From contig JBGTCV010000089.1 in the NCBI GenBank assembly GCA_041748655.1, positions 7,987-71,986 of the forward strand: DNA of 64,000 nt, in the 5' to 3' direction. This stretch comes from Candidatus Promineifilaceae bacterium. GTDB taxonomy: Bacteria; Chloroflexota; Anaerolineae; Promineifilales; Promineifilaceae. The notes under the pieces were generated by a model. It had not been told where the DNA came from and did not search any database. It worked only from the letters and a program-made list of their open reading frames with translations. Numbering within the stretch: position 1 is the stretch's first letter; every line of letters starts with the position of its first letter. The position numbers and the translations under genes are program-made. Of the stretch, positions 3,317 through 60,561 are shown in pieces.

Positions 3317-3871
3317 TTAGAGCAATCGTTCAAGCTCTGTTGCGGCATCCAGCAAGGGCGCCACGTTCCGTTCGCTGCGGCTCAGAATGATAGCTCCTTC
3401 AATCAGCGCAATAACCACGGACGCCAGCCGCCGTGCCCGCACCGGTTCATAGCCCGCAGCCAGCAGCTTTTGCTCAATAACGGCCTGCCACGCCTGGTAA
3501 GCAGCAAGGCAGGCGGCGTTGAGCCGTTCATTGGTTGAGGCGGCTTCGAGAGCAACGGCCGTAATCGGCCCACCAGACTGAAACCCGCTCGCCTGCACAT
3601 AATGGGCTAAATTGCGTAAAAATGCCGGAATTGCCTCAGCCGGATTGGTGTAGGCCGCCATACCGGCCTGCAACCTTTCTACAATGATCTTGCTGGTTTG
3701 GGCAATTGCTTCCTCAACCAACCCATCCTTACCATCGGGAAAATAGTAGTAGAGCGACCCCTTCGGCGCACCACTTTCAGCTAAAATCTGATTTAAACCC
3801 GTGGCATGATAACCCTGGATTTCCATCAGTTGACAGGTTGTCTCTATAATTTGATCCCGTTTTGAGCTCAT
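3317..3871 (-). CDS. TetR/AcrR family transcriptional regulator
   Basis: N-terminal HTH with GYHATGLNQILAESGAPKGSLYYYFPDGKDGL, the classic TetR signature. Confidence 0.9.
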   Translation of the reverse strand: MSSKRDQIIETTCQLMEIQGYHATGLNQILAESGAPKGSLYYYFPDGKDGLVEEAIAQTSKIIVERLQAGMAAYTNPAEAIPAFLRNLAHYVQASGFQSGGPITAVALEAASTNERLNAACLAAYQAWQAVIEQKLLAAGYEPVRARRLASVVIALIEGAIILSRSERNVAPLLDAATELERLL

Positions 3872-4544: not shown

Positions 4545-4630
4545 TGGTGTCATGAAGCGAAAAACGTTCAAGCGAATAAAACCTTCGCAGCGAACAAGGA
4601 ATTCGCACAGCGAATGGTAGTAAAAATTTA

Positions 4631-4676
4631 GGTGGGGCATGTCACCCAAGATGACATGCCCCACCTCTTTTTTTTG
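4631..4676 (+). terminator. Rho-independent terminator
   Basis: GC-rich perfect stem GGTGGGGCATGTCA / TGACATGCCCCACC followed by a run of 9 T; 87 nt after the roadblock stop. Confidence 0.6.
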
Positions 4677-4684
4677 GGTATTGA

Positions 4685-6416
<1,732 letters not shown>

Positions 6417-6454
6417 CTACAATTCCTTCAAAAACAGTGAAGGAAGGTAAAAAA

Positions 6455-7009
6455 ATGTCTACAAATGTAAGCGGACGTGAGGAAACAATTACTTTGGGCG
6501 GGGGCTGCTTTTGGTGTTTGGAGGCGGTTTTTGACGAAATGCGCGGGGTGACGGACGTATTGTCTGGCTACGCGGGCGGGCACGTGGCCAACCCCACCTA
6601 CCGCGCGGTATGTGCCGAAACAACGGGGCACGCGGAGGTAGTGCAGGTGCGCTTCAATCCAGAAATCATCTCATTGAAAGAGCTGCTGTCGGTTTTCTTC
6701 ACCATTCACGACCCCACGACGCTCAACCGGCAGGGGGCGGATGTGGGCACGCAGTACCGTTCGGCAATCTATTACAACAGCGAGGCGCAGCGGGAAACGG
6801 CCGTAACCCTCATCAATGAACTTAACGAAGCCAGCATCTGGCACAACCCCATCGTGACGGAAATTGCGCCCATCGATACGTTTTACGTGGCTGAAGATTA
6901 CCATCAAAATTATTATGTCAACAATCCAGACCAGGGCTACTGCCGCGTTGTGGTCGCCCCCAAAGTGGCCAAATTCCGGCAAAAGTTCAGCCATCTGCAA
7001 ATCAGGTAG
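6455..7009 (+). CDS. msrA: Peptide-methionine (S)-S-oxide reductase
   Basis: GGGCFWCLEAVF active-site motif. An AGGAAGG RBS precedes the ATG at 6455. Confidence 0.9.
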   Translation: MSTNVSGREETITLGGGCFWCLEAVFDEMRGVTDVLSGYAGGHVANPTYRAVCAETTGHAEVVQVRFNPEIISLKELLSVFFTIHDPTTLNRQGADVGTQYRSAIYYNSEAQRETAVTLINELNEASIWHNPIVTEIAPIDTFYVAEDYHQNYYVNNPDQGYCRVVVAPKVAKFRQKFSHLQIR

Positions 7010-7077
7010 CAGCAACAAACTTGGGCTATTCGCCGCTAAAATGGGGAACGGCCGTACCAATCACCAATCCCAAATCG

Positions 7078-8085: not shown

Positions 8086-8093
8086 ATGGGATT

Positions 8094-8172
8094 TGTAATT
8101 GAGTAACCGGGTAATTGGGTAATTGAACCAACAGCATAATTACCCAATTACTCAATTACCTAATTACCCTTT
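8094..8172. repeat. Family A heptamer-iterated palindromic element, copy 2 (between cmoA and cmoB)
   Basis: GTAATTGAGTAACCGGGTAATTGGGTAATTGAACC...AATTACCCAATTACTCAATTACCTAATTACC. It overlaps the cmoA stop and ends 8 bp before the cmoB start. Confidence 0.7.
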
Positions 8173-8892: not shown

Positions 8893-9005
8893 AAATTTTC
8901 TCTATCGAACAGTTAACTGTTCAGCCCAATCCAGAACAAGCATGTTATAATGATTTTCGTGGCACTCTTTTGGCCAACAACCGGAAGCTGGTAGGATCAA
9001 CAATT

Positions 9006-9230
9006 ATGACACAAATCGAGTTGCAGGATGCTAAAGAACAGTTTATGAAGCTGGTTGAAAGGGCTGCCAGTGGCGAAGAAATTGTGATCTATAAAAACAA
9101 GCGCCCTTTTGTCAAGCTGCTGCCCATTGACCACGTCCCTCACCAACGCGAGTTTGGCAGTGCCAAGGGACTTATCCAAATGGCCGATGATTTTGATGAA
9201 CCTCTTGCAGATTTTGAGGAGTACATGTAG
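9006..9230 (+). CDS. Type II antitoxin (Phd/YefM-like, VapB-type partner)
   Basis: 74 aa with a characteristic acidic C-terminus DDFDEPLADFEEYM. Its stop overlaps the GTG start of the downstream PIN gene. Confidence 0.7.
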   Translation: MTQIELQDAKEQFMKLVERAASGEEIVIYKNKRPFVKLLPIDHVPHQREFGSAKGLIQMADDFDEPLADFEEYM

Positions 9231-9631
9231 TGCGCTTTCTGTTAGATACACATGCATTTCTCTGGTTCATCGGCGGCGATGAACGCCTTCCCTCATCCGC
9301 TCGCACGCTGATTGCTGATATGGAAAATGAAATCTTCCTGAGCGTGGCCAGCTTGTGGGAAATCGCCATAAAAGTCAGCCTTAAAAAGCTCACGTTGGGC
9401 GCCCCTTTCGCTGAATTACTCCCCGGACAGATCATCAAGAATGAAATTACCGTACTGCCAATTGATTTGGAAGCATTAACCCTCGTAACCAGCTTACCAT
9501 TCCACCATCGCGATCCGTTTGACCGCCTGATGATTGCCCAGGCGCTTACCCAAGATGTGCCGATTATCAGCCGTGACGAGCTGTTTTCAGCCTATCAGGT
9601 CAAATGCATCTGGGATACTCAAGCTAGCTAA
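9230..9631 (+). CDS. vapC: PIN-domain toxin VapC
   Basis: MRFLLDTHAFLWFIGGDERL N-terminus with the acidic PIN residues D6 and E (SLWEIAIK); 133 aa. Confidence 0.85.
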   Translation: MRFLLDTHAFLWFIGGDERLPSSARTLIADMENEIFLSVASLWEIAIKVSLKKLTLGAPFAELLPGQIIKNEITVLPIDLEALTLVTSLPFHHRDPFDRLMIAQALTQDVPIISRDELFSAYQVKCIWDTQAS

Positions 9632-11727: not shown

Positions 11728-11865
11728 AGGGGGGCACAGAGCTGCACAAAGAATCTCTGTGTAACTCCGTTTAGCTCTGCGAAACTCTGTGTTCCTAAAA
11801 ATCGTTCAACTATCGTTGTTAATGGGTTGCGGGGAATGTTACAACAAAAACGGCCGTTTCTAAAA

Positions 11866-12273
11866 TCAAGGTTGGTGCGTGGGGATGACGGCCGTTCCCC
11901 TTTCCAACTGTTCCTGATCCAAAGATACTAACTCCGCGCCCAACTGTTCAGCGACGGCGACGTAAAGCGCGTCACAACCCCGCAGCCGATGCCTGGCGGC
12001 AATTTCCGCCGCCCGAACGCCGAGAAAATCATCCACAAGAACCAACTCAATCACGCCTAACGCCTGTATCTGGGCCAGAACATCTTCGGCCAGTTGCGTA
12101 TCACCGGTTGACCGGCTAATCGCGCCCACTACTTCTGCCAAAAATGGCAGTGGCGCTGCCAAAGGCGTGCCGCTGGCCAAAGCATCGTTGTACCATTTCT
12201 GGCTGGCCGCATGATTTGGCTCTTCTTTTTTCAACATGGCCACGTACACAGATGCATCCAAAACAACGGTCAT
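11866..12273 (-). CDS. vapC: PIN-domain toxin VapC
   Basis: MTVVLDASVYVAML N-terminus with the conserved Asp. 135 aa. There is a 4-bp ATGA overlap with the upstream antitoxin gene. Confidence 0.8.
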   Translation of the reverse strand: MTVVLDASVYVAMLKKEEPNHAASQKWYNDALASGTPLAAPLPFLAEVVGAISRSTGDTQLAEDVLAQIQALGVIELVLVDDFLGVRAAEIAARHRLRGCDALYVAVAEQLGAELVSLDQEQLERGTAVIPTHQP

Positions 12274-12545
12274 AAATCACGCCTCTGCTCTTGAACGGCT
12301 TCGACCGCAGAAAGCGGCGACTGCCACGCTTTGGAAACCCGCTCCGCCATTTTGTTTAATTCGCTCATTAGATGATTGATTTCTGATTCGTCGTATTTGC
12401 GGGGTTGTTCTTCGGCTAACGGCCGTAACACCGCCACCGGCTCGCCATGCAGCGTCACCACGTACTCAGCCCCCTCTTCCCGCACCGCCCGCACAATCTT
12501 CGAGGCATTATTCCTCAATTCCCGAATCCCGATTTTTTTTGCCAT
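12270..12545 (-). CDS. Phd/YefM family antitoxin
   Basis: MAKKIGIRELRNNASKIVRAV...EYVVTLHGEPVAVLRPL matches the Phd/YefM fold signature. Confidence 0.75.
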   Translation of the reverse strand: MAKKIGIRELRNNASKIVRAVREEGAEYVVTLHGEPVAVLRPLAEEQPRKYDESEINHLMSELNKMAERVSKAWQSPLSAVEAVQEQRRDL

Positions 12546-12779
12546 TTCGCCTCCAGAGCAGACCCCAAGGGTTTGCTATCGTTAATTGTGCCTGCTTAAA
12601 GAAAACCCTTGGGGTCTTCACAACTAGCAAAATTGTAGCTACATGTAGCCACAAGTCAATCCCCCTGCCACACAAACCGGGGCATTTCAGTAGTCCAATT
12701 TTAGGACGCGGACCAGCGCAGATGACGCGGAAGGTTGCTTATTATCTGCGCTCGTCCGCGTTCATCCGCGTCCTATTGG

Positions 12780-15578
12780 CTAATCATGTGGACTTTTTGA
12801 AAAACCCTGCCCCACAAACCAACGACGCACCAACTCAATTTGAAAGCGCAAGCCGTCGCCGTGTGGCTCGATGAGTTCGCGCTGCTGGAGTTGGGTGATG
12901 GTTTGGTTGAACACGGCCGTTTCCACCCCACCCATCTCCCTCTCCAACTCGCTGCGCGAAACCGCCTGCTTTTCGCCAGCCTTGGCCAGCAAGTGCAGCA
13001 CCTCCCCCCCTACCCCGTCCGCCTGGTTGCGCATGTCGGCGAAGAAAAAGCTGCCGTGCATGAGCGCTTCGGGTACGGCCGTCTCCACATCCGCCACCGT
13101 GGCCAAGCGACGCTGCGCCGGGGGCTGTTCGTTTTTCAGGGCCACAATCTCGGCGCAAAGGAGCTGCACCAGAAACGGATGCCCCCGCGTCAGGTCCAGC
13201 ACCCGCTGGCTGGCGGCCGGTTCGTAGCGCAGGGCAAAGTTCTGCACCGGCGCTTCCACCAGCTGCCGCGTCTCGTCCGGGTGCAAAGTGCCGATGTGTA
13301 CCACCTGCACGTTGATCAGGTAGCTGGACCAGCGCGAAAATTCGGCCAGCGTGTGCGAGCCGGAAAGCAGCACCTTAAATTGGGGCCGGTGCTGGATCAG
13401 ATGGCGCAGCATCCCCAGCACAATTTCCTCATCAAAACGGTGCAAGGACAGCACCCGCTCCAGCGCCTCAAATTCGTCCAGCATCAGCAGCGCGGTTTGG
13501 CCACCCAGCGCCGCCTCCACCCCGTCCAGCCATTCGTCAAAGCGGGTGAACGGGTCGTCGTGCAGCTGCTCACGGCTGAGCGGCGGCAGCGCCACGCCCC
13601 GCTGCCGTTTGGCCGACTGCACCATGCTGCGGGCCACGTTGTACAAAAAGCCCGCCTCATCCTGCGCCCGCGAAGCCGGGCCCTGCAAATCGACAAACAG
13701 CGGCACGATACTGCTGGGCAGCAGCCGCCCCAAATTATTGAGCAGCGACGTTTTGCCCACACGCCGCTGGCCGTAGAGCAGCAGCGGCGGCTGGCGGCGG
13801 TCGAGCAGCAGCTGCTCAATCCGGCTGCTCACGTCCTGCCGCCCGATGAAAATCGCCTGCTCCGCCGTCAGCGGCACGCCGATGATGTATGGGCTGTCGA
13901 TCTCCTGGCGCAGTTCGGCTTCCTCGGCCAATCGCGCCCCCTTTTCGCCGATGATCTGCCGCCAGCTGGCTGCAATCGGGCGGAAGCGGGCGGCGTATGG
14001 CTCATTGCTGCGCGTTAATTCCCGAAGGAGCCCATCCAGCCGGTCCTCGACGGCGTGCAGGGCGAGGCGCCGGTTGTAGGCGCTCTCCTGCTGCAAGGCG
14101 GCGGCCACGTCGCTGCTGAGGCGGCTGAAGCTGCGCAGCAGGGCGCTGGCCGGGCCAACCAGATCCCCCGCCGCCAAACCGGGATGCACTTCGGCGATCT
14201 GAACAGCCGTTTTACACCGTTCCAACTGCCGCGCATCCAGCTCAATCTGGGCCGCCTGGGCTGCCCAACGCTGCCGCGTACTGCTCAAATAGGCCATTGC
14301 CGTGCGCCCTTCAGCCAGATTTTTTTGGATGGTGAGCAAAATATGGGCATCTAAATTCAGCAGCGGCAGCCGCTGAAACTCGTCCCAAAAGGCGGAATGC
14401 CAGCGCAGCAGCGGCCGTTTCTCTTTCTGGTCCGCCCGCTGCACATCCAGTTGGTACAAAATTCGGTTCCAGACCAGCAAAAAGGGGTAAAGCAGCACTG
14501 GCCGCCACCACGCCAGGGTCAATCCCAGCAAAATTCCGGCCAGACCAAACCACAAAAATGGCCCGTACGCCGTCCCCTCGGTGGCAAACAAAAAGAGACC
14601 CGCGCCGCTGCCCAGCGATCCGGCCAGCCCGCCCGCCCAGGTACCCGCAATCTTCTCGGCCAGGACGTAGGGCAGGGCAAAGAGTGCCGCCACAAAAGCG
14701 ATAAAGGCCAGCGCCTGGACCAGGCCACCCACGACTGCCGATGCATCGGCTTGTGTACTTGGTAACCCACCTGCCAGCCAGACGGCCGTTCCCACCAGCA
14801 ATCCCGCCAAACCACCCCGCCGCCAGCTCTGGCTGCGCCAGCCCACGGCCAGGCCAAACGGCAGCGCCGTCAGCAGCGCCGTCGCCCAGACCCCTTCCAG
14901 CAGCCGCGCCAAAAAGCCCGCCGCCAGCCCGATGAAGATGCCCACCACCATGCCGCTCACCTGCCGCAAAACGGAGACGCCGGGAACGGCCGTTTCCTGC
15001 ACCATCTCTTCCCGCGTTACCCCCACCCCCACGCCATAGGCCAACCCACCCGCCAGCCCGCTGGTCAGGCCGATCAGGCTGCTCACCACCACGTCTACCG
15101 CCAGGGGTACGCCGTTCAGCGTTAGATCGCCCGCCGCCCGCAGCAGCAGCGCCCCGCCCAACCCCAGCGTAAAACCGGTGGCCATGCCCACCGTCACGCC
15201 AATGGCCACGCTGCCCGCAATGCTGGCCGCCAGCCCCACAATCAGCCCCACGGCCACGCCCAGCATGACGCCCAGCAACAGCGTGTTAGACGGCACACCC
15301 AGCAGCCAGAGCAGCAGCCCCAGCAGCAGCCCAACCAGCAGGGGCCAGGCGAAAAAAGTCATGAGGAGGAAGCGGAGAACGGCCGTATTGCCCCACTGCT
15401 GCCGCTGCAAATCGGCCAGGCTAAAATAGGGGGAGAGGGTACTGTCGAGCCGTTTCAGGTGGTTGCGCCAGGCCGAAGGGTGAAAAAAAAGCCAAAACAG
15501 CAGCCGCACGCTGCCGGTCAGCAAATTGCCGGGCAGGGTTGGGGCGTCGGTGTAGCGGTCGCGTAAGGTATCACTCAT
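12780..15578 (-). CDS. Polytopic membrane protein fused to a coiled-coil region and a PF01637-type (archaeal-ATPase-like) P-loop NTPase domain with a C-terminal winged-helix-like tail
   Basis: The N-terminal ~400 aa are glycine-zipper-rich TM helices. The middle is Q/A/R-rich coiled coil. The motif IFIGRQDVSSRIEQLL...LLLYGQRRVGKTSLLNNL is the FxGRExEL ... GxRRxGKTSLL signature of the ATPase_2 family. Walker B LLMLDEFE. Confidence 0.6.
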   Translation of the reverse strand: MSDTLRDRYTDAPTLPGNLLTGSVRLLFWLFFHPSAWRNHLKRLDSTLSPYFSLADLQRQQWGNTAVLRFLLMTFFAWPLLVGLLLGLLLWLLGVPSNTLLLGVMLGVAVGLIVGLAASIAGSVAIGVTVGMATGFTLGLGGALLLRAAGDLTLNGVPLAVDVVVSSLIGLTSGLAGGLAYGVGVGVTREEMVQETAVPGVSVLRQVSGMVVGIFIGLAAGFLARLLEGVWATALLTALPFGLAVGWRSQSWRRGGLAGLLVGTAVWLAGGLPSTQADASAVVGGLVQALAFIAFVAALFALPYVLAEKIAGTWAGGLAGSLGSGAGLFLFATEGTAYGPFLWFGLAGILLGLTLAWWRPVLLYPFLLVWNRILYQLDVQRADQKEKRPLLRWHSAFWDEFQRLPLLNLDAHILLTIQKNLAEGRTAMAYLSSTRQRWAAQAAQIELDARQLERCKTAVQIAEVHPGLAAGDLVGPASALLRSFSRLSSDVAAALQQESAYNRRLALHAVEDRLDGLLRELTRSNEPYAARFRPIAASWRQIIGEKGARLAEEAELRQEIDSPYIIGVPLTAEQAIFIGRQDVSSRIEQLLLDRRQPPLLLYGQRRVGKTSLLNNLGRLLPSSIVPLFVDLQGPASRAQDEAGFLYNVARSMVQSAKRQRGVALPPLSREQLHDDPFTRFDEWLDGVEAALGGQTALLMLDEFEALERVLSLHRFDEEIVLGMLRHLIQHRPQFKVLLSGSHTLAEFSRWSSYLINVQVVHIGTLHPDETRQLVEAPVQNFALRYEPAASQRVLDLTRGHPFLVQLLCAEIVALKNEQPPAQRRLATVADVETAVPEALMHGSFFFADMRNQADGVGGEVLHLLAKAGEKQAVSRSELEREMGGVETAVFNQTITQLQQRELIEPHGDGLRFQIELVRRWFVGQGFSKSPHD

Positions 15579-15588
15579 TTCGGTTATC

Positions 15589-15652
15589 GGTAGGTCAGTA
15601 TTCAGTAGGTCAGTATTCAGTAGGTCAGTATTCAGTGGGTCAGTATTCAGTA
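15589..15652. repeat. 4.3 tandem copies of a 15-mer (plus-strand GTAGGTCAGTATTCA) starting 11 bp upstream of the membrane-ATPase start codon
   Basis: Perfect 15-nt periodicity; one copy has a single A to G change. Confidence 0.85.
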
Positions 15653-15838
15653 GAATGGCAGCTTCTTGGAAAAGTCTGTTTTCTTTTTAATGGGACACAG
15701 ATGGTTCGGCTGCGCTCACCACAAGCTTTCACAGATGAACACAGATTTTACTCAATTTTAGGTCAAATCTGTGTCCATCTGTGTGCGCAACTTGCGCCCA
15801 TCTGTGTCCAATTTTTCTTTCTCCGACAGGCCGCTAAC

Positions 15839-15890
15839 ACTGATAACTGATTACTGACCACTGATTACTGCTCACTGATTACTACTCACC
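15839..15890. repeat. About 3 tandem copies of a related 15-mer (CACTGATTACTGNNC) in inverse orientation to the 15589 array; overlaps the SARP gene stop
   Basis: The reverse complement CAGTAATCAGTG is close to the TCAGTATTCAGTAG unit of the other array. Confidence 0.75.
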
Positions 15891-17513
15891 GGCCATCCGC
15901 CGCAGCGGTTCCAGCTGGCGCAGCGCTTCTTCGCGCCAATCATCGCCCGTCTCGCCTTCGCTGAGGCTGAGCAGCCGCTCGCGGCACAAGATTTGCAGCG
16001 GCATGGGCCAACGGCCGCTTTCCATCAAAATCCAATCCACATCCCTGGGCGCAAATTTGAGCGGTGCGGTGGCGATCAGGCTGCGTGCCCCTTCTTCGGA
16101 GAGTGGGCCGAGAACGGCCGTATAGCCAAAAATGTTAAAAAAGGGTGATCCCAATCCCTGATGCTGGGCCAGTACGTCCGGCGGCTGGGCGCTGGAAAGC
16201 ACAAAACCGAGATTGCCGTCCACCTGATTGGTTGCCAGGGAGCGCAAACTTTCCCAAAAGGCATCATCCAGCTCCGGGTAGCGGGTTAGGGCCACCCCAA
16301 TTTCGTCGAACAAAATAACGGTGGGCTGGTTGAGCTGCTCGCTCACCACGTCCATAAAATTTTCCAAATCGCACGATTCAGGCACATCCAATTCCATTTC
16401 GGTCAGCAGCGTGCGCAGCAGCGTCTCCTGCCGCCCCAGCCGCGCATCCTGGAAATCCACAAAAATCCAGCGGGTGCCGCTCGCCTGCGGCAGCCAATCG
16501 GCCAGCCGCAAATAATGCAGCAGCGATGTCTTGCCGCTGCGGCGCGGCCCGATGATCGCCGCGTTTTGCAGCGGGCGCTGCCGCAGCATCAGCCCCAGCC
16601 GCTTCAGCTCCCGCTCCCGGCCAAAAAATTGCGCCGGATTGGTGATGGGCGGCCCAGCGATAAAGGGTGATTTGGTGACAGGGTGACGGCGTTCTGCGAA
16701 CGCTTGTGGCATGGTAACATTTTGTCCGGTCACCTTGTCAAATTCCCCACTGCGGATTTGCTGGTGGAGGACGGCCGTTTCCGCCGAAACCGCCACCCCC
16801 AGCTCAGCAGCCAGCAGCTGCTGGCACTGCTCAAACTGGTGCAGCGCGGCCGGGCGCTGGCCAGAAAGGGCCAACAGCTGCATCAGCAGGCGGTGGCTCG
16901 CCTCGCGGGTTGGTTCCAGAATGAGCAGCTGGCGGGCGGCGGCCACCCCCTCGTCGTACCGGCTTTGCTGCCGCAGCTGGCTGGCCCAGGCGTCGTGGGC
17001 GATAACGGCCTGGTTGTGGAACCAGCCGCGCTGTTCTTGCAGCCAGTTGTCGAATTCTGGAGCCTGCCGGATGTAAAACTCCTGCAAAAATTCACCGCGA
17101 TAGAGCTGAACGGCCGTTTGCCAGCCCCCGCGCTCTTTTTCGCCAATGTGAATGGTTTGTTGGAAAACGGCCGTGTCCAGCCAAACGGCCGCATCCGGGT
17201 TCAACCCCACGGTTTGATGGCTGATTTGCAGGTACGGCGCCAGCAGCTGGCGCAGCCTGAGGATGACGCCGCGCAGGTTGCGCCGGGCGTCGGACTCGGG
17301 CAGTTCGCCCCAGAGCAGGTTGGCTAAGGTGTGGCGGGAATGGGAACGGCCTGCACTGAGCGGCTCAACGGAGTTGAGCCTGCCGAAGTGGCCGCTCACC
17401 GCCAGGTAACACAACAGCGCCTGCGCCTTGCCCGAATCCAGCCCGATCAACGGTTCATCATCGATTGTGATCTGTAATGGCCCCAGCAGAGCCAGTTTCA
17501 GTACTTTTGTCAT
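15882..17513 (-). CDS. SARP (AfsR/DnrI/RedD)-family transcriptional regulator fused to a PF01637-type P-loop NTPase domain
   Basis: The N-terminal LALLGPLQITIDDEPL OmpR-type winged helix is followed by a BTAD-like helical region. Then FFGRERELKRLGLMLRQRPLQNAAIIGPRRSGKTSLLHYL (ATPase_2 signature) and Walker B ILFDEIG. Confidence 0.8.
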   Translation of the reverse strand: MTKVLKLALLGPLQITIDDEPLIGLDSGKAQALLCYLAVSGHFGRLNSVEPLSAGRSHSRHTLANLLWGELPESDARRNLRGVILRLRQLLAPYLQISHQTVGLNPDAAVWLDTAVFQQTIHIGEKERGGWQTAVQLYRGEFLQEFYIRQAPEFDNWLQEQRGWFHNQAVIAHDAWASQLRQQSRYDEGVAAARQLLILEPTREASHRLLMQLLALSGQRPAALHQFEQCQQLLAAELGVAVSAETAVLHQQIRSGEFDKVTGQNVTMPQAFAERRHPVTKSPFIAGPPITNPAQFFGRERELKRLGLMLRQRPLQNAAIIGPRRSGKTSLLHYLRLADWLPQASGTRWIFVDFQDARLGRQETLLRTLLTEMELDVPESCDLENFMDVVSEQLNQPTVILFDEIGVALTRYPELDDAFWESLRSLATNQVDGNLGFVLSSAQPPDVLAQHQGLGSPFFNIFGYTAVLGPLSEEGARSLIATAPLKFAPRDVDWILMESGRWPMPLQILCRERLLSLSEGETGDDWREEALRQLEPLRRMAGE

Positions 17514-17747: not shown

Positions 17748-19832
17748 ATGATCAAATTCAAAAAACGATTCAAAGACTCCCCCGGACAAGCCCTGGTCGA
17801 ATTCGCCCTCATTATCTCTGTCCTCCTGGCGATGATCTTTTTGATTATTGAAAGCGCCCGCATTTTGTGGGCCTGGAACACCGTGCAAAACGCCGCCCGA
17901 GAAGGCGCGCGCTACGCCATCACCGGGCAGGCCGAAGGGCCAGATTGTCCCGTTGATTTTGGTCAGCCCAAATTTGTAGATGGTGGGCGTGATGTTTGTA
18001 CCAATTTACGGGTTGCTTCCATCATTAACAGAACCCACACCAGCCTGTCTGGCTTACCCTTAAACGAAGAGTCCGTTACGTTTGAAGATGGTCAATATTA
18101 CAATATTGAAATTTGGGGCGTGGATGAGTTTGGGCAGTTGCAATACGATTTTGGCGGCATCCCCAGCAATCCGGTTATTGTGCGCGTCACCTATCGGGTG
18201 CCCATCATCACCCCGTTCTTTTCAGCTATTTTGCCTTCTATTCCCGTATTCGGGCAGGAAACCTTGAACAATGAAACGTTTGGCCAGTTGGGTGGCGCCA
18301 GCAGCAGCGAAGGGGCCGCCCTGCCGCCAAACCTGCCACCGGTACCCACGCCGGGCGTTACCCCTTCGCCCACGCCTACCCCCCTCCCAACCGACACGCC
18401 AACGCCGGGGCCAACCGAGACCGCCTCCAGCACGCCAACCTTTACCCCAACCCCGCGCTGTGATCTGGAGTTTGAAGGAGGAGCCATTGCCGGGAATAAC
18501 TTTGTTTTTGTGACGGGTGATGTAGGCATTAACGTGACCATTATTAACCTTTCCACCGGGCAAACCCTGGGCTCGGGCACGCTGGGTGGACCGTTTAATG
18601 GACATGCCTGCGCAGGTTTTAGCGCCATCATTTTAAATCCGGCACTGACGGTGGCCAATCTGGGCCATGTGTTGGTAGCGCAGCAAACAGACGATAGCAC
18701 CAACAACGACACAACGATTGTCGTGGGCACGCCGCCAACGGCTACTCCGTCGCCTACACAAACCCTGGTGCCCACCAGCACCCCCAGCCCCACGCCGCCG
18801 CCAACGCTCACGCCCACGCCCAGCGGCCCATATATCACCATTGCGCCCAACTGTGGGCCGGGGCCCAACATTCAATTTATCTTGCAGGCATACAACTGGC
18901 CTGTTAATCAGTCGGTCACTTTTTTCTGGGAAGGTGTTTCCCAGGCGACCTATCAGGCAAACGCGCACACCGGCACGTTTACGCTGGGCTGGTCCTTCTC
19001 TGGGCTTGGCAATGGCACTTATACGGCCAGCGCCCGGTCTGGCGTCAATGGGGCAACCGCCTCGGCGCTTTATACCGTCCCCTGCGCAGGGCAGCCCACG
19101 CCGACAGGGGCGCCAACAAACACACCGGTTCCTGCTGATCTGGTAGCCATTGGCCCCCCCACCCTGCTGAGCACCCCCCCCATTGTGGCCTACCAGCCGG
19201 TGCAGTTCTCCGTCAACATCACCAATACGGGTGACATCGCCGTAAATAACCAATTCTTTGTCGATATTTATCTGGATCCCACCACCATTCTGGCGGATCG
19301 CATTCCGCTGACGGAGAGTGATGGTTATTCGGCCGTGAGTGGCCTGCCCGGTGGCGAAAGCCGAACGGTCATCATCAACGCCCCGTTTGGCTTTGAGAAC
19401 AGCCCAACCAACCATCAGGTGTATGGCATGGTTGATTCGGTTTTGCAGATTCAGGAAGTGAGCGAAACAAACAACGTCACCAATCCGCGCACGGTGTTGA
19501 ACGTTACCCCGGCAGCGACACCCACACCCACACCCACGCCAAACATCGTTGGGGATAGTGAGATTAGCGGAGTGGTATTCGCACTTAGAGGGACTTACCT
19601 AAGACAATTCCGAGCCGATGTTTTCTTAACTGACGAAAGCACTTCCCAAATAGTAAGTAGAACAACTACAGATGAAAATGGTTTCTACATTTTTGATACC
19701 GTTCCGGTCGGAACATACACCGTGCACGCCTGCATAGTGATTGACAATTCACAATATTTTGGCCTTCGTACTGGTCGAACACCGCCTAATCCGTATGTAG
19801 ATATTTTTGCTGCACCAGGAGCTTGCCCTTAA
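17748..19832 (+). CDS. Giant TadE-like (Flp pilus assembly pseudopilin-like) protein with Pro/Thr linkers, a CARDB-like domain and a C-terminal carboxypeptidase-regulatory-like domain
   Basis: N-terminal GQALVEFALIISVLLAMIFLIIESARILWAWNTVQNAAREGARYAITG is the TadE signature. PT-rich linkers. VAYQPVQFSVNITNTGDIAVNNQFFVDIYLD resembles CARDB. C-terminal FLTDESTSQIVSRTTTDENGFYIFDTVPVGTYTVHA. Confidence 0.7.
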   Translation: MIKFKKRFKDSPGQALVEFALIISVLLAMIFLIIESARILWAWNTVQNAAREGARYAITGQAEGPDCPVDFGQPKFVDGGRDVCTNLRVASIINRTHTSLSGLPLNEESVTFEDGQYYNIEIWGVDEFGQLQYDFGGIPSNPVIVRVTYRVPIITPFFSAILPSIPVFGQETLNNETFGQLGGASSSEGAALPPNLPPVPTPGVTPSPTPTPLPTDTPTPGPTETASSTPTFTPTPRCDLEFEGGAIAGNNFVFVTGDVGINVTIINLSTGQTLGSGTLGGPFNGHACAGFSAIILNPALTVANLGHVLVAQQTDDSTNNDTTIVVGTPPTATPSPTQTLVPTSTPSPTPPPTLTPTPSGPYITIAPNCGPGPNIQFILQAYNWPVNQSVTFFWEGVSQATYQANAHTGTFTLGWSFSGLGNGTYTASARSGVNGATASALYTVPCAGQPTPTGAPTNTPVPADLVAIGPPTLLSTPPIVAYQPVQFSVNITNTGDIAVNNQFFVDIYLDPTTILADRIPLTESDGYSAVSGLPGGESRTVIINAPFGFENSPTNHQVYGMVDSVLQIQEVSETNNVTNPRTVLNVTPAATPTPTPTPNIVGDSEISGVVFALRGTYLRQFRADVFLTDESTSQIVSRTTTDENGFYIFDTVPVGTYTVHACIVIDNSQYFGLRTGRTPPNPYVDIFAAPGACP

Positions 19833-21176
19833 ATGAAAAAGAGAGTGGTCTATTTAACTTTTGCATTTGCATTACTAATGGTTTTCAGCCAAATAAATAT
19901 CGGTACGGCCGTTGCTGAACCGGATGCCCCCTTGGCCCCTTCTGCGGCGCCAAACTGGAATAATTTGGGAGTGATCTCCCAAAGCAGCGGTATTACATCT
20001 GCTATTACCCCGGCTATTGCTGCTTCCAGTACTGGAAGCAAGGTGATTGTTGTTTACAACGGGGTTATTAATAACAATCTAGATAATCAAGATGTGTTCT
20101 ATACAACTTCGACTAATTACGGCGCAACCTGGCCAACAAAAGCTCGCATACATCAAAGCATCGGAGACCAATTAAATTCCACCTTTGTAGATGTGACAAT
20201 TAGCCCGAATAATAAAGGACATGCTGTTTGGATCGAAAAACTTAACAGCATTCCCAGGCTTGCATACAAATATGAAGACAACTGGGGCAATAACACCACA
20301 AATCTGGTGATAATTTCTTCAGTGCCATCATTAACAGACACATTATCAGAACCTAAAATTGTCGCCAAAAGCAATAATCGGCTCGACGTTGTTTGGGCAG
20401 AAGGCACAGCTGCGACAGACATCAATATTTTTCATGCTTACTCCACTAATGGTGGTAGCAGCTTCACTGGTAAAACGGCCGTTGCCCAAACAATCCCTTC
20501 CTCCAGATCGCCGAGTATAGCAATTGACGCTGCAGGAAATTACCACCTTGTCTGGGAAGAATTAACCAACCCCTCCAGGATTTTATATTCTCGTGGGGTA
20601 CCATCTGGCAATAGCGTCATCTGGTCTGTTCCACCGATAAACATTTCAGTCAGGAGTATTCCAGGCAATACCACGGCCGCAAGGCAACCCAAAATATATG
20701 CCGACGGGAACGTCCTGCATGTAACATACGCTAATTTTATCAACAAGCAGCAGCAATTTGTTCACCATTTACAGTGCAATTCAGGCTGTACCAATGCAGC
20801 AAATTGGGTGTCGGTGGGTAATCCGATCTCTGGACAAGTTCTTTCAGCAAAAGCATCAGATCCATTTGACCTTATTTCTACCATTGGCCAGATTGGAAGA
20901 TGCACCTATGTTTATTTCCACGGCATCCAGGGTGACAGCAGTAATGAAAATAACCGGGAAAGAATTTGGGGCACAAATAGCTGTGGCAACTGGGCAGCCA
21001 GCGTACGTGATCACGTGACGACAGCGGACGTACGCTCGATCAATCCGGCAATGGTTTCGGCAAATAATTGGTGGCTGTTTATGGCTTATGAACAAGTAAA
21101 TACCAATGCAAGTCTGCGAGAAATTTATTTTGTGCGCAACCAACCGGCTATTTATTTGCCGACAATATTAAAGTAA
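19833..21176 (+). CDS. Secreted BNR/Asp-box repeat protein (sialidase-like beta-propeller)
   Basis: Signal peptide followed by Asp-box-like repeats TSTNYGATW, YSTNGGSSF and further S-x-x-G-x-x-W motifs. Confidence 0.5.
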   Translation: MKKRVVYLTFAFALLMVFSQINIGTAVAEPDAPLAPSAAPNWNNLGVISQSSGITSAITPAIAASSTGSKVIVVYNGVINNNLDNQDVFYTTSTNYGATWPTKARIHQSIGDQLNSTFVDVTISPNNKGHAVWIEKLNSIPRLAYKYEDNWGNNTTNLVIISSVPSLTDTLSEPKIVAKSNNRLDVVWAEGTAATDINIFHAYSTNGGSSFTGKTAVAQTIPSSRSPSIAIDAAGNYHLVWEELTNPSRILYSRGVPSGNSVIWSVPPINISVRSIPGNTTAARQPKIYADGNVLHVTYANFINKQQQFVHHLQCNSGCTNAANWVSVGNPISGQVLSAKASDPFDLISTIGQIGRCTYVYFHGIQGDSSNENNRERIWGTNSCGNWAASVRDHVTTADVRSINPAMVSANNWWLFMAYEQVNTNASLREIYFVRNQPAIYLPTILK

Positions 21177-21182
21177 TCAACC

Positions 21183-21860
21183 ATGAATCGATTAGAGTGG
21201 ATTTTAGGCATTATTTTGGTGGTTTTACTACTGGTGGTAGGGGCGCTGTCGCTGACCTTCTGGTTCCGCAATGACCGCACGGCCGTTTCCTCCCCCAACA
21301 CCGCCGCCAATTCTGCCACCATCATCGCCCAGCGCGCCGACGACATCGCCCCTACGCCGGAATACGACGGCCGTTCCGCCATTGTCGCCTACGCTGCTGC
21401 TCAAAACCGGGCACTGGAGTGGCAGCCAGACGCCCAGCTGCTCAACACCCAGGCCACCTGGCCCCAGGGAGCTACCGCCGACTATTTGCGCCAGGGCACA
21501 GAAAGCTGGGGCTTTACCTTTTACTCGCCCGCTGCCGGGCGCATCGCCCTCTTTTCGGTGGTGGCAGACCAGGTTTCCCTGATCACCGAAGGGGACCACA
21601 CCCAAACCGAGCCGCTCCTTTCGGCCAGCGGCTGGAATCTGGACAGCCACGAAGCGGTTCGTGTTTTCCTGGCGGGTGGTGGCAGTACGTTTATGGCCGA
21701 ACAGGGAGTCACAACCATGACAATGGCTTTATTGGCGAGTGATGGGGAGGAAAACGGCCGTCTCGAATGGCAGCTCGCTCTCTTTTCACTCCAAACCGGA
21801 CAGGCCTTCACCATGCGGCTAGATGCCACTTCCGGTGAAATCCTCTCCACCAACCCGTAA
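21183..21860 (+). CDS. Membrane-anchored hypothetical protein (single N-terminal TM, extracytoplasmic domain)
   Basis: LGIILVVLLLVVGALSLTFWF TM helix. No recognizable family. Confidence 0.4.
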   Translation: MNRLEWILGIILVVLLLVVGALSLTFWFRNDRTAVSSPNTAANSATIIAQRADDIAPTPEYDGRSAIVAYAAAQNRALEWQPDAQLLNTQATWPQGATADYLRQGTESWGFTFYSPAAGRIALFSVVADQVSLITEGDHTQTEPLLSASGWNLDSHEAVRVFLAGGGSTFMAEQGVTTMTMALLASDGEENGRLEWQLALFSLQTGQAFTMRLDATSGEILSTNP

Positions 21861-21915
21861 TCGTCAGGCTTATCGTAAATCTAAAATCGTAAATCGTAAA
21901 TTCAGAGGCAAAACA

Positions 21916-23178
21916 ATGAAACAGCAACAAACAACCCCAAAACAGTCTCAACGCGGCCAAAGTCTGGTCGAAGTCGCCCTCTTTTTCCCCATCTTTATCC
22001 TGTTACTGGCGGGGCTGGTCGAGGTTTCCCAGCTGCTGGTCACCCAAAACCGGGTCAGCAGCGCCGCCCGCGCCGCTACCCGCTTCGCCTCCAATGGTGG
22101 GCAGGATGAAGGGATTCCCACCTCCGTCCTCAACACCGTTACCCAGACGCTGGAAATTGACGAAAATGTTTGGGATATCTGGAGCATCCGGGCTACTGTC
22201 AATGCCAACGGCTCAGATTTTGTACAGTGGCAGTTTACCCACGTCTATGGCGTCTCCAACACGGTTCGTGCCCCATCGGTAAGTGAGCAAGCGATTCGCA
22301 CCCGCGTACTGGAAGAACTCCAGCGGGATGAACTTGATAACCCGTCAAATACCATCGCACAAAATCTGCAGATCGTGGGCACCTACGCCATTCATGACGT
22401 CGATTCCATCCTGGGATTGGATGCCATGTCCCAACTGGCTGGCTTCTCTTCTATCAACGCCCTCAGCGTCATGCGCATTACCACCAATACCCAGAATGTC
22501 ACCAATGGCTGTTCCGCCTTTCCTATTGCGGTTGAAGAAGGTGCACGTTCTGTCACTAATCCTTTGCTTGGCGGTTCAAATCCATACCCAAGCAATTTCT
22601 CCTATCCGCCCAATCCTCCAGTTTATAATTCCTTTGCTAATCACCGGGACGATACACCACTGCTGCACGCACGAGAAGGGGATGTTTTCCGAATTTGGAA
22701 TGGCGCGGGCAGCGGCAACTTTGGCTGGTTGGTCTGGAATACCGGGGTCTCGGCCAATGCAAACACCCTGGCCAACAGCCTGTCGTGGCCGGGGGACAGT
22801 ACCAATTACAACCCCTGCAGCGGTCCCGGCTGCCCTGGGGGCCAAGGCATCCCTGGTTCCGGATTTGATACAAACGTGCCCGGCTATATTGAACCCGACG
22901 ACCCCACTGATCAGTCCCTGCACATAAATGATTGGGTGGCAGGCAGTACGGGAACTGTAAGTTCCAACGACGTAAATACCATCCTTAAAGGGCATATAGA
23001 CCGGGGGCGGACCCTACGGGTGATTGTTTGGAAGGCACCGGCCACCGGCACCGGCAGCAACGTCCGGTATCAAATCTCGGGCTTCGCTATCGTTCGTCTG
23101 ATTGGTTACCATCTTCAACAAGATTGGATTCTGGCCGAGTTCATCCGCTGGGACGACTCCTGCGGCCAGCTAAATTAA
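21916..23178 (+). CDS. TadE-like pseudopilin-like protein with a large C-terminal extracellular domain
   Basis: From the internal Met: MKQQQTTPKQSQRGQSLVEVALFFPIFILLLAGLVEVSQLLVTQNRVSSAARAATRFAS is TadE-like. The longer upstream ORF extension overlaps the previous gene. Confidence 0.65.
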   Translation: MKQQQTTPKQSQRGQSLVEVALFFPIFILLLAGLVEVSQLLVTQNRVSSAARAATRFASNGGQDEGIPTSVLNTVTQTLEIDENVWDIWSIRATVNANGSDFVQWQFTHVYGVSNTVRAPSVSEQAIRTRVLEELQRDELDNPSNTIAQNLQIVGTYAIHDVDSILGLDAMSQLAGFSSINALSVMRITTNTQNVTNGCSAFPIAVEEGARSVTNPLLGGSNPYPSNFSYPPNPPVYNSFANHRDDTPLLHAREGDVFRIWNGAGSGNFGWLVWNTGVSANANTLANSLSWPGDSTNYNPCSGPGCPGGQGIPGSGFDTNVPGYIEPDDPTDQSLHINDWVAGSTGTVSSNDVNTILKGHIDRGRTLRVIVWKAPATGTGSNVRYQISGFAIVRLIGYHLQQDWILAEFIRWDDSCGQLN

Positions 23179-23297
23179 CGAATCACGACGCCTTTCGTGC
23201 CACGCGCGGCGTGGTACGAAAGGCCAAGATGCTCTGCATCATATAACAGATATTAATCGAACCAAAAATCGTCGGATGATCAAACAGGGTTAAGCAT

Positions 23298-25223
23298 ATG
23301 AACCGTATCAAACAGTTTATCCAACAAAAACAGCAGGCCAATGACCAGGAAAAAGGGCAAAGCATCGTTCTCATCGCCCTGATGATGGTGGCCATCATCG
23401 CCTTCGTCGGCATTGCCGTCGATGTCGGCTTCATCTTCGCCCGTGGCTCCCAGCTTCAGGCCGCCATCGACTCGGCTGCGTTGGCGGGTGTCGTCGAACT
23501 CCCTGGCTGGAGCGAAGGTAATGCAGGCAATCCAGCTCTGGAAGGAAACGCCCGCACCAGATCGGCCCAATTCCTCAACGCCAACAACATGCCTGTTTCG
23601 GTCACCGCCTCCATCAACATCCCTAACAACATCGATGTCTCCACCACGCCGCTGGGCGCTACCCAATACGCCGTCACCGCTACCTGGCCTGTGGAAACCT
23701 ACTTTCTTAAAGTGATCGGCTTCCGCGAACCGATCAACCTGACCCGCTCCGCTACCGCCGCCATTTTCTCGCTGGCCGATATTTACGCCAGCCGCCGGGT
23801 GGAAGATGGCGTCCTCAGCACCTCCAACCAGGGCATCTTTGGCCCCGCCTCCTGCACCCACATGGGCGACCCGTTCTCCCCCATCATCAGCGCCTGGGAA
23901 CCCGGCCCCTATACCTACACTTACCGTATCTACATTCCGCCCAACTACAGCCACAATGTGGTGCGTGTGGAGCTGTTCGACCCAGACTCGATCAATACAG
24001 CTCTCAACACAGCCACCATTAACCGCTCCTTCACAGCAATCAACAATGGATTGGGCGCAATTGATTCCAAAACGTGCGGCACGCATGGCGGCAACGCAAG
24101 CCAGCATCAGCCCTGCCTGCTGCGTACCGATGAACTTACTTTAGTCAATAATGCACCAAATCTGGATTTAGACCAGGTGAACCCCTACTGGTTTGTTCGC
24201 ATTGATGAAAACCGTCGGCCGCCTACTACCCCGGGAGGCGGCTGTGGCGAAAATGGCTACAGGGTAGAAAACAACACCCAAACCCGCTACAGCCTCTCTT
24301 ACTTCGCCCAAACGCCAGGAAGTTCACCTGTAAAGATCCCCCTCGTCAGCTACTTCGGCCAGACTGGTGATGCACGCGACACGGTCATGTATGGCGGCTC
24401 TCCTGGAGACCATCTAACCGATTTACGCTGGGTTTCGCCGGGAACGGCCGTTCCCTTCTCCACCGTCGATGATCCCGGCGTGGCCGTACCCGCCACGCCC
24501 CAAACCATTAGCAGCTTTGAAGTCAACCTCACCACCGACGTGCCCAACATGGTGGTAGACCAAAATACCGGCGCGCGGTATATCTACCTGGACGTACAGG
24601 CGATGAGCGGCTCTTCGGAAAATGGCTTTGAAGTGTGGGCCGGCCCCCCCACTTACGTCAATACCGTCCCCAGCGACGTCAACGCCCGCAACCTGCACAT
24701 TCTCAACAACCCGGGTGCCCACTCGTCCCAAGGCGTCACCGTTTACGGCCTGGGCAACCTGCCCATGAACTCCAACTTTGGCGAGATCGTTGATGTACCG
24801 CTGCTTTACGTCGGCCCCGATATGATTGGCCAATCTATCCAGGTGAGTATGTTCGATACAGATTCTGGGGCGGCTCCTCCTCTCGTCTTTTACTTCGACT
24901 CGCTTGCCTTTACCCCCAGCACCACCAATCCGCTGGGCTATAATCCTGCCCTAACCGACTGGGCCCGTTCTTTTCACGTGAGTGGGCAGCCAGACCCAGA
25001 AGGCCAAACCTTCCCCTGCGTGCTAGGCAGTTGTGATAATCGCTGGGTCAATTACACAATTACCGTTCCAGGTAATACTGACAACTGCGATTACAACAAT
25101 CAAACCATGGCCGACTGTACCCCCTTCTTTGGTGGTCGTCTTATCGCCCGCTACCGTGCCGGTTTCTCAGACACCTACGGCTGGCAAATCAGGCTCGAGG
25201 GGCTGCCCTATTTGGTGAAATAA
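23298..25223 (+). CDS. TadG-like (putative Flp pilus-assembly TadE/G-like, PF13400-type) protein with a large C-terminal domain
   Basis: N-terminal QEKGQSIVLIALMMVAIIAFVGIAVDVGFIFARGSQLQAAIDSAALAG. 641 aa. Confidence 0.65.
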   Translation: MNRIKQFIQQKQQANDQEKGQSIVLIALMMVAIIAFVGIAVDVGFIFARGSQLQAAIDSAALAGVVELPGWSEGNAGNPALEGNARTRSAQFLNANNMPVSVTASINIPNNIDVSTTPLGATQYAVTATWPVETYFLKVIGFREPINLTRSATAAIFSLADIYASRRVEDGVLSTSNQGIFGPASCTHMGDPFSPIISAWEPGPYTYTYRIYIPPNYSHNVVRVELFDPDSINTALNTATINRSFTAINNGLGAIDSKTCGTHGGNASQHQPCLLRTDELTLVNNAPNLDLDQVNPYWFVRIDENRRPPTTPGGGCGENGYRVENNTQTRYSLSYFAQTPGSSPVKIPLVSYFGQTGDARDTVMYGGSPGDHLTDLRWVSPGTAVPFSTVDDPGVAVPATPQTISSFEVNLTTDVPNMVVDQNTGARYIYLDVQAMSGSSENGFEVWAGPPTYVNTVPSDVNARNLHILNNPGAHSSQGVTVYGLGNLPMNSNFGEIVDVPLLYVGPDMIGQSIQVSMFDTDSGAAPPLVFYFDSLAFTPSTTNPLGYNPALTDWARSFHVSGQPDPEGQTFPCVLGSCDNRWVNYTITVPGNTDNCDYNNQTMADCTPFFGGRLIARYRAGFSDTYGWQIRLEGLPYLVK

Positions 25224-32527: not shown

Positions 32528-32610
32528 CTAACCGCAGAGGACGCAGAGGGCACGGAGAATAAATAATACCAGAGTAAACCTCAGCGTTCTCCGCGCTCTC
32601 TGCGGTGAAA
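32528..32610. repeat. Family B palindromic element (ACCGCAGAGGACGCAGAGGGC ... CTCCGCGCTCTCTGCGG)
   Basis: Recurs at 43328-43396, with a degenerate copy at 48421-48460. Confidence 0.6.
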
Positions 32611-39900: not shown

Positions 39901-39972
39901 CCGTAATCGGTAATCGGTGAATGGCGCATGGAGATATTGCCGATAACGAATTACGGCATACCAATTACCGAC
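39897..39972. repeat. TAATCGG heptamer-iterated inverted repeat (family D) between phnC and phnE
   Basis: CCGTAATCGGTAATCGGTGAAT...CCGATAACGAATTACGG...CCAATTACCGACC; a related copy lies at 46271-46310. Confidence 0.55.
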
Positions 39973-39994
39973 CAAGAACTCTAAAGAGCGATCC

Positions 39995-41665: not shown

Positions 41666-41752
41666 AATAGACATTATTGGGATTAACGCAGATTAAAGGC
41701 AAAAAATCTGCGAAATCTGCGTTAATGTGCGGATTATTTTTAGAGGAATTGT

Positions 41753-43327: not shown

Positions 43328-43396
43328 TTTACCGCAGAGGGCGCAAAGAACGCAAAGTTCTTTTATCTCCGCGCTCTCTGCGTCCTCTGCGGTAAA
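43328..43396. repeat. Family B palindromic element, copy 2
   Basis: TACCGCAGAGGGCGCAAAGAACGCAAAG...CTCCGCGCTCTCTGCGTCCTCTGCGGTAAA. Confidence 0.6.
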
Positions 43397-51559: not shown

Positions 51560-51639
51560 TTAACTCTTTGGAAGATGCGTGAAACGTGATTGGCAACCCC
51601 CGGTTGCTTCACGTTTCACGCTTCACGTTTCCCTGTTCT

Positions 51640-60543: not shown

Positions 60544-60561
60544 CGTGGGTCCTTCCTGATT

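Follow-up and report, generated by a model that had tools for sequence, protein, structure and literature searches.

Known heptamer repeats and the SARP-STAND spacer

The short tandemly repeated repetitive (STRR) sequences of cyanobacteria are short tandem heptamer repeats described as direct arrays, and in the decades since STRR and the TAACTGA heptamer repeats became known, no agreement on their function has been reached. Here we analysed a 64,000-nucleotide stretch of a Candidatus Promineifilaceae bacterium (phylum Chloroflexota; assembly GCA_041748655.1, contig JBGTCV010000089.1, positions 7,987 to 71,986; hereafter the window), in which the 303-bp spacer (15579-15881) between a SARP-like gene and a gene for a STAND-ATPase is a single compound palindrome, with outer arms of heptamers and 15-mers enclosing an inner palindrome of CACAGAT decamers. 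We consider it probable that this spacer is a nested composite of two general intergenic tandem-repeat hairpins and not a gene-specific operator. The observation is real and statistically strong; striking as the locus looks, it can be explained as one instance of a repeat class spread through the genome, a variant of the known heptamer-repeat phenomena. About every second intergenic spacer of this Chloroflexota lineage carries such repeats as paired arrays that form hairpins, and the sequence and polarity of one decamer family are constant in genomes of 36-70% GC as well as in viral contigs.

The closest description to the outer arm is that of the TAACTGA direct repeats of marine Beggiatoaceae, a Chromatiaceae species and some Cyanobacteria and Bacteroidetes (MacGregor 2015, PMC4679880). 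These arrays are tandem, intergenic and start-codon-oriented, end 0-1 nt before the start codon, usually without a ribosome-binding site, and may overlap the end of the upstream open reading frame (ORF); a single inverted case is reported among 170 sets (PMC4679880). The window outer arm likewise ends ...TAACCGA-A-ATG, leaving a gap of 1 nt, and a TAACCGA-type unit ends 0 nt before the ATG in three related loci (L001, L002 and L005; TTACCGA-ATG in L001 and L002). In addition, a block on the plus strand of the spacer reads TAACTGA TTACTGA CCACTGA, no ribosome-binding motif is present at positions -20 to -4, and the CACAGAT family is found in similar taxa (Chromatiaceae, cyanobacteria, Bacteroides). 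Unlike in the described arrays, however, the exact unit occurs only once (15843-15849, plus strand), with TTACTGA, CCACTGA, ATACTGA and TAACCGA as neighbours, so that the window units are TWACYGA variants in 7/8 alternation without two or more exact tandem copies. The Chloroflexota host is a new phylum for such repeats, the units are paired in inverted orientation, giving a hairpin, and a second family is nested inside.

Heptamer arrays near start codons of Nostoc change reporter expression (bioRxiv 10.1101/2022.06.06.494920). With STRR and the Nostoc heptamers, for which these reporter data suggest an effect on expression, the window repeats share the presence of several, mostly intergenic families per genome and a similar density of period-7/8 blocks (1.95 per 10 kb in filamentous cyanobacterial loci vs 2.04 in the window), but the unit sequences and the phylum are different and the window has inverted pairs that form hairpins. 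REP, BIME and REPIN elements are abundant extragenic palindromes that fold into hairpins as DNA or RNA, often located between co-transcribed genes and composite or mosaic, for which mRNA stabilisation and translation control of the upstream gene have been proposed (PMC3116915, PMC3733652, PMC8266576). They offer the best functional analogy to the abundant, composite intergenic palindromes of the window, but REP arms are unique 20-40-nt sequences whereas the window arms are tandem 7-10-nt units of many families in one architecture, and of the RAYT/TnpA(REP) genes with which REP elements are associated none is found among the 46 window proteins scanned.

Miniature inverted-repeat transposable elements (MITEs) have terminal inverted repeats, a target-site duplication and several copies that share internal sequence, inverted arms with subrepeats inside are typical of eukaryotic foldback elements, and the small dispersed repeats (SDR) of Nostoc, which Elhai reportedly described in 2008, are said to insert into other repeats or hairpins with their secondary structure preserved. 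The spacer resembles these elements in its inverted, widely recurring arms and in a presence or absence that varies between relatives, but membership cannot be claimed, with no target duplication visible and neither conserved internal sequence nor a known transposase found. Neither the CACAGAT foldback family nor tandem-repeat-armed hairpins as a class turned up as described in open-access text, and the literal repeat sequences gave no match in literature text.

Architecture of the spacer and its counterparts in relatives

Both flanking genes are encoded on the minus strand. The upstream gene of the pair (15882-17513, ORF call, 543 amino acids) codes for the SARP-like protein, which contains BTAD (Pfam, 1.7e-18) and AAA_16/AAA_22 domains, its N-terminal match to the winged helix-turn-helix (wHTH) domain Trans_reg_C being sub-threshold (E 0.02, 15.4 bits; cut-off 26.2). 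The downstream gene (12780-15578, 932 amino acids, start codon ATG at 15576-15578) encodes the STAND-ATPase, which is hydrophobic in its N-terminal half and has an nSTAND1/AAA_22 NTPase (Pfam). Read in the direction of transcription, the stop codon TAG lies inside heptamers (CAGTAAT, CAGTGAG etc.), followed by a partly paired linker, GGACACAGATGG, a 13-nt mini-palindrome, ACACAGATGGACACAGAT and a 10-nt loop; then come ATCTGTGTTCATCTGTG, 25 nt, CCATCTGTGTCC, a second linker, four 15-nt units (TGAATACTGACCYAC) and finally CCGATAACCGA-A-ATG.

The outer arm next to the SARP stop (15838-15893, the 5' arm in the mRNA) comprises six to seven heptamers according to Tandem Repeats Finder (TRF; period 7 and 14) and the inverted-pair scan. 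Its units read CAGTAAT/CAGTGAG on the minus strand and TAACTGA/TTACTGA/CCACTGA on the plus strand, and the SARP stop codon (15882-15884) falls within the heptamer run. The outer arm next to the STAND start (15580-15654, the 3' arm in the mRNA) consists of one older unit and four 15-nt (7+8) units, three of them identical. The 15-mer GTAGGTCAGTATTCA is an alternation of seven and eight nucleotides (TCAGTAT / TCAGTAGG) and is perfect at 15590, 15605 and 15620, the copy at 15635 having one A->G exchange. Four matches compare with 0.49 expected, a number reached in 0 of 100 shuffles, and TRF reports period 15 with 4.3 copies and 95% matches. The fifth, older-looking unit TCGGTTATCGGTAGG (15580-15594, reverse complement TAACCGA) is 1 nt off the ATG. 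The two outer arms face each other as complementary blocks, the ACTGATT-type heptamers pairing with the 15-mers over 14-nt arms (93%).

Enclosed by the outer arms is a middle layer, the halves of which (15655-15688 and 15814-15837) pair imperfectly in the minimum free energy structures (GCTGCC/AGCGGC, CTTTTCC/GGAGAAAG). The inner '3+3' foldback (15689-15813; inverted pairs, TRF period 10) carries CACAGAT at 15696, 15730 and 15740 and ATCTGTG at 15767, 15777 and 15800 around a central loop (15752-15761), so that the spacer holds three of the five exact copies of either heptamer in the whole 64 kb. Its arms are 91% complementary over 15730-15751/15762-15783 and 94% over 15689-15704/15798-15813. 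Between units 2 and 3 of one inner arm lies the mini-palindrome GCGCAACTTGCGC (15785-15797; inverted pair, folds), whereas its mirror site in the other inner arm (15705-15729) is an unrelated 25-nt insert. The whole spacer folds into one nested hairpin as RNA of the minus strand (-134.7 kcal/mol, z -10.35) as well as of the plus strand (-134.5 kcal/mol, z -12.37), and the corresponding DNA fold gives -68.7 (z -9.2).

The ordered repeat architecture of the spacer that had been noticed in the original prediction is thus beyond chance by shuffles and fold z, and as both genes are on the minus strand its placement both upstream of the ATPase start and at the SARP 3' end is correct. The mirror arrangement of three CACAGAT and three ATCTGTG heptamers holds as well. 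Four tandem 15-mers are present, but only three of the supposedly perfect copies are so; a complementary block does face them at 15839-15890, but it is made of heptamers and not of three inverse 15-mers; and although 15 bp is, as noted, not a helical repeat, the actual periods are 7, 8 and 10.

Several conventional assignments were rejected. An intrinsic terminator would show a GC-rich stem and a U tract, and no terminator-like site occurs in 15579-15881, the only ones in the scanned region 15300-16200 being located inside the STAND gene. A CRISPR array, already dismissed in the original prediction, has repeats of 23-50 nt with unique spacers, whereas the units here are 7-15 nt long and arranged head to tail without spacers. 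The window has no Rfam match at gathering score, and the spacer and nine related loci yielded only sub-threshold look-alikes of miRNA precursors, i.e. generic hairpins, at permissive thresholds; the scan for tRNA and tmRNA genes gave no match either.

Orthologs of the SARP-like protein with 76-91% identity (best 91%) are encoded in metagenome-assembled genomes of Ardenticatenales/Promineifilaceae, including Ca. Leptofilum and relatives, which places the window in this group of Chloroflexota; at least 16 genomes keep the SARP-STAND gene pair. The conserved ATG is shared by nine close relatives, the STAND start ATGAGTGA(C/T)ACC... being kept in nine orthologs while the sequence 5' of it varies, and their spacers measure 41-96 nt vs 303 nt in the window. 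All ten related loci, i.e. the nine relatives and the window, have a repeat-armed hairpin in this spacer. Its units, however, are GTAATCN / NGATTAC in L001, L002 and L005, GTGAAAC in L004, GGAGATT in L006, L007 and L008, GATTGGnCCAATC in L014, and CCTGATT inside a GGACGCAGAT remnant in L003, all of them families that are found elsewhere in the window.

Alignment of these spacers separates the layers of the window palindrome. Outer arm 15838-15893 aligns with the GTAATCN arm of L001/L002/L005 and outer arm 15580-15654 with their CGATTAC/TAACCGA arms, while the 184-200 nt (approximately) between the arms, including the middle layer, are missing from the orthologous spacers and found in the window only. 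The ATG-touching unit TAACCGA keeps the form seen in L001/L002/L005. As the change CGG/CCG -> CAG/CTG affects both window outer arms, complementarity was maintained.

More distant orthologs (53-56% identity) have a spacer of purine-rich heptamers (GGCGGAA x4 in L009:2994-3040; GGGAGAA/GGCAGAA in L010:7594-7650) that looks like a string of Shine-Dalgarno (SD) motifs. The C-terminal half of the SARP-like protein (approximately residues 230-540, including the AAA ATPase) is 48-65% identical to proteins of many filamentous cyanobacteria (Microcoleus, Calothrix, Scytonema, Nostoc; L024-L080), a hint that genes were exchanged between these two lineages, in both of which short tandem-repeat arrays occur.

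The hairpin class in the window and in other DNA

The focal spacer is not alone in the window. Comparing 35 spacers of at least 40 nt with 35 length-matched coding controls, we found a fold z of -3 or below in 18 of the spacers, with the focal one being the most extreme, and in none of the controls. Period-7/8 blocks number 13 in the window vs 0-2 in shuffles; counts of period 4-6 blocks are dominated by chance and were set aside. According to TRF and inverted-repeat scans, many other spacers of the window are likewise built as [short unit]n-loop-[reverse-complement unit]n.

One sister element, a (GTAATTGN)n / (NCAATTAC)n hairpin (8095-8169), fills the cmoA-cmoB spacer, and further GTAATTGN octamer elements lie at 6361-6421 and 60559-60637, the spacers of the three sites having fold z values of -4.1, -5.1 and -7.1. 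The outer family has a sister between ABC ATPase and permease genes (39901-39976, GTAATCG ... CGATAAC/GAATTAC), with GTAATCG heptamers at 39901 and 46270. The inner family has a sister, too (12702-12775), in which GGACGCGGAT / GAGCGCAGAT decamers face an inverted partner; it is located directly downstream of the STAND gene in spacer 12546-12779 (fold z -7.0). The repeat scans also gave CGCAGAG/CGCAGAT/CACAGAG hairpins at 11728-11865, 32531-32606, approximately 41682-41727 and 43328-43396, further such units at 47111 and 48412, GAGATT units at 44229, 49623 and 26862, GTGAAAC units at 51575 and GTGAAAA units at 59214. Several of the hairpins are operon-internal: one separates a cmoA-like gene from a cmoB gene (8086-8163), and others (39901-39994, 41666-41752) lie in the operon of a phosphonate-type ABC transporter, where they separate ATPase and permease genes. 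As classical U-tract terminators are present separately in the window (e.g. 4622-4680), the tandem-repeat hairpins are a different thing.

Same-strain short-read contigs (Logan SRR28170463, 100% identical), the only match of exact-protein look-ups, end at 8139, within the GTAATTG hairpin, at 12783, where the STAND gene has its 3' end, 8 nt past the 12702-12775 hairpin, and at 15780, within the inner CACAGAT palindrome. Tandem-repeat hairpins may fragment short-read assemblies, but the breaks were not taken as proof of multi-copy status.

The inner CACAGAT family extends far beyond this genome. Since single 17-mer matches in metagenomes may be due to chance, only multi-unit or paired cases were counted. 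The double unit CACAGATGRACACAGAT is present in at least 120 stretches of metagenome contigs among the matches listed, and 36 of 80 examined metagenome stretches have at least two forward and at least two reverse units within 220 nt. A typical member has three decamers facing three across a loop of 10-160 nt, in loci with a GC content of 0.36-0.70. In 20 of 20 cases, and in all others found, the CACAGAT arm comes first and the ATCTGTG arm second, the reverse order never being seen. Plasmid pTs485 of Ca. Thiodictyon syntrophicum has a perfect 3+3 copy between its fwdB and fwdA genes, and related CACAGAT arrays are carried by plasmids of Anabaena cylindrica, Gloeothece PCC 7424 and Bacteroides finegoldii. 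Viral contigs contributed 84 matching stretches, with several copies on some contigs.

Nesting recurs as well: in L148 and L105 CACAGAG units enclose CACAGAT units, and L151 and L126 hold further composites. Among 28 classified hairpins nine are in co-directional, three in convergent and one in divergent spacers, five in called ORFs that may be spurious, and ten at contig edges. Many CACAGAT hairpins fill a stop-to-start spacer, several of them nearly exactly; examples are L102 (7 and 20 nt) and L119 (14 and 11 nt).

In viral contig L263 three ATCTGTG arrays (2760-2830, 5360-5420, 12880-12960) are located 20-30 nt 5' of an SD motif and ATG on the same strand; as a general rule this pattern was rejected, direct-only arrays being oriented 27 vs 30 relative to downstream starts. 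In another viral contig (L213/L214, IMGVR_UViG_3300037461_000754) arrays with a large variety of short tandem units (CATTCGTCC, ATCTGTGTCC, CCTTCGTGT, ATCTGCGCC, AATTACCCAT and CGTTCCAA) lie next to each other on the same strand (e.g. L213:921-1200, 3497-3780 and 6784-7060).

Origin, possible effect and alternative explanations

The comparison of spacers suggests how the composite arose. Throughout the clade an older hairpin with TAACYGA-like heptamer arms occupies the stop-to-start spacer, GTAATCN following the stop codon and NGATTAC/TAACCGA extending up to the start codon. In the window lineage about 184 nt, themselves palindromic and with the 3+3 CACAGAT decamer foldback of the cross-phylum, fixed-polarity family as core, were added in the loop of that hairpin. 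Subsequently, replication slippage probably enlarged the outer arm on the ATG side, giving the three identical 15-mers, with intrastrand template switching and/or selection keeping the arms complementary. Judged from the sequences, insertion or growth in a pre-existing hairpin loop followed by local amplification of the 15-mer would be the simplest history, and new modules seem to settle preferentially in hairpin loops.

The effect of the element is a weaker part of the proposal. As the gene pair is conserved and neither a promoter-like nor a terminator-like site was detected (a scan of 15300-16200 for sigma-70-like promoters gave none), the element is probably transcribed within a bicistronic mRNA and the SARP and STAND genes are probably co-transcribed across the spacer. 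The base of the resulting stem-loop of about 300 nt would then join the SARP stop to the 20 nt just before the STAND start, a start without SD motif (no GGAG, GAGG or AGGA in the last 20 nt, positions -20 to -4, before the ATG). Such a structure would protect the upstream message, and the STAND start would stay occluded until the base of the stem is opened by a ribosome that finishes on the SARP gene, so that STAND translation would be tied to SARP translation. We hold it only loosely that the intercistronic stem-loop may couple or limit downstream translation; still, the attractive reading as SARP operator is replaced by a testable hairpin that possibly ties one gene product to the other. The class as a whole looks like tolerated selfish, neutral or structural DNA with local side-effects on expression.

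A number of results weigh against this interpretation, and they concern both the effect and the origin. Starts without SD are common in the window, an SD-like motif being present in only 20 of 49 genes (start calls are approximate). RNA-specific selection is not apparent, as of 27 strongly folded co-directional spacers 12 are more stable as sense and 15 as antisense RNA, and G-U pairs show no asymmetry (124 sense vs 146 antisense). The orthologous spacers of L002 and L005 are much more stable as antisense (-41.7 vs -20.0 and -43.5 vs -35.4). Hairpins of the class also occur in convergent and divergent spacers, so that a single RNA role cannot explain the class, and the direct-only CACAGAT arrays show no orientation bias towards downstream starts. 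As to the origin, no second copy of the inner 184 nt was found by blastn in about 1 Mb of related loci, where only short CACAGAT matches were obtained, no target-site duplication is visible around the insert, the palindrome continuing into the flanks, and none of the 46 window proteins has a transposase or RAYT (Y1) domain.

The alternative that survives best is a site-specific regulatory RNA, i.e. a hairpin selected at this very junction to couple or attenuate STAND vs SARP translation, with the repeats as raw material. The persistence of a stop-to-start hairpin in all ten orthologous loci despite complete sequence turnover argues for it, as do the position of the stem end, 2-20 nt before the conserved SD-less ATG in most of the ten, and the joint change of both window arms. 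Hairpins of this kind, however, are found in about half of the window spacers, which makes persistence at one site weak evidence, and the missing sense-strand bias, the antisense stability of L002 and L005 and the frequency of SD-less starts all argue against it, so that we regard site-specific selection as unlikely.

We rate still lower, as a rather improbable explanation, an active non-autonomous transposon of the MITE or foldback type, in which the inner 184 nt or the CACAGAT core would be mobilised by a transposase encoded elsewhere that recognises the decamers and targets hairpin loops. The insert is indeed absent from the orthologs, the inward-facing polarity is fixed in every case, the 10-bp spacing is about one helical turn, and the family crosses phyla, occurs in viral contigs and plasmids and nests in the loops of other hairpins; moreover, one array is possibly located inside a MoaA-like ORF. 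Yet the absence of a visible target-site duplication, of a second whole-unit copy in about 1 Mb of related DNA and of a transposase gene among the 46 window proteins scanned does not fit, loop sequences vary between copies, and many direct-only arrays have no inverted partner. Of the two possibilities raised in the original prediction the miniature inverted-repeat element is nearer the truth than the SARP operator: the insert and the fixed-polarity family agree with it, but neither a target-site duplication nor, in about 1 Mb of related DNA, a second copy of the whole unit was found.

The array mentioned above (L152:1100-1200) consists of three CACAGATGAA units with a degenerate inverted partner within a MoaA-like radical-SAM ORF (CNLRCEYC...) and may be an in-frame insertion into coding sequence.

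Very unlikely in our judgement is a contingency locus, where slippage of the 15-mer would tune or switch STAND expression between cells by phase variation. Three identical tandem 15-mers directly 5' of the start do point to recent slippage, and indels in 7-nt steps between strains have been reported for TAACTGA arrays (PMC4679880), but the array is intergenic and not located between promoter elements, and the comparison is limited to one same-strain assembly whose contig begins at 15780, with the 15-mers outside.

As for the neighbouring regulator, the spacer repeats are probably not its binding site. SARP boxes are heptameric direct repeats spaced 11 bp (one helical turn) that lie over the -35 element, about 8 bp upstream of the -10 element. 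An operator array for the adjacent SARP or another DNA-binding protein at a STAND promoter is hardly credible, although SARPs bind heptameric direct repeats, the adjoining gene encodes a BTAD protein with a weak wHTH signal, the CACAGAT period is 10 bp and a TAAAAT hexamer follows the units 3' on the sense strand, since the periods are 7/8/15 or 10 instead of 11 bp, promoter context is missing from 15300-16200, the Trans_reg_C match is below cut-off, the orthologous spacers have unrelated units despite a conserved SARP (76-91%), and the same families occur genome-wide, at unrelated loci and in other phyla.

A wider version of the preferred reading as a composite of general hairpins can be put forward tentatively, being possible but not the likelier outcome. 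In it the hairpins would form an undescribed pan-phylum class of micro-elements, foldbacks of fixed polarity whose arms have two to five tandem 7-10-nt units from a shared repertoire (CACAGAT, CGCAGAG, GTAATTG, GTAATCG, GTGAAAC, GGAGATT and others), residing in stop-to-start spacers of Chloroflexota, cyanobacteria, purple sulfur bacteria and their phages and plasmids and spreading or turning over by nesting in each other's loops. If true, this would imply either mobile DNA of a new type or conserved machinery by which hairpins are read. The regularities of hairpin-forming pairing, of polarity and sequence, and of nesting narrow the origins to mobility, template switching or a conserved reader, and they provide concrete patterns for genome-wide surveys.

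Some features of the window stand apart from these hairpins. The palindrome ACGGCCGT, often extended to AACGGCCGTT, has 98 copies in 64 kb vs 1.1 expected, roughly one every 650 bp, in genes as well as outside them (e.g. 599, 1421, 15379, 16114 and 63649), and in this Chloroflexota genome it resembles HIP1, the highly iterated palindrome of cyanobacteria. Two Phd/YefM-PIN toxin-antitoxin pairs (11866-12545 and 8970-9631) flank an E1 dehydrogenase/transketolase-like gene not far from the focal spacer, and a Tad/Flp pilus-like cluster (TadE, CARDB) is located at 17748-25223.

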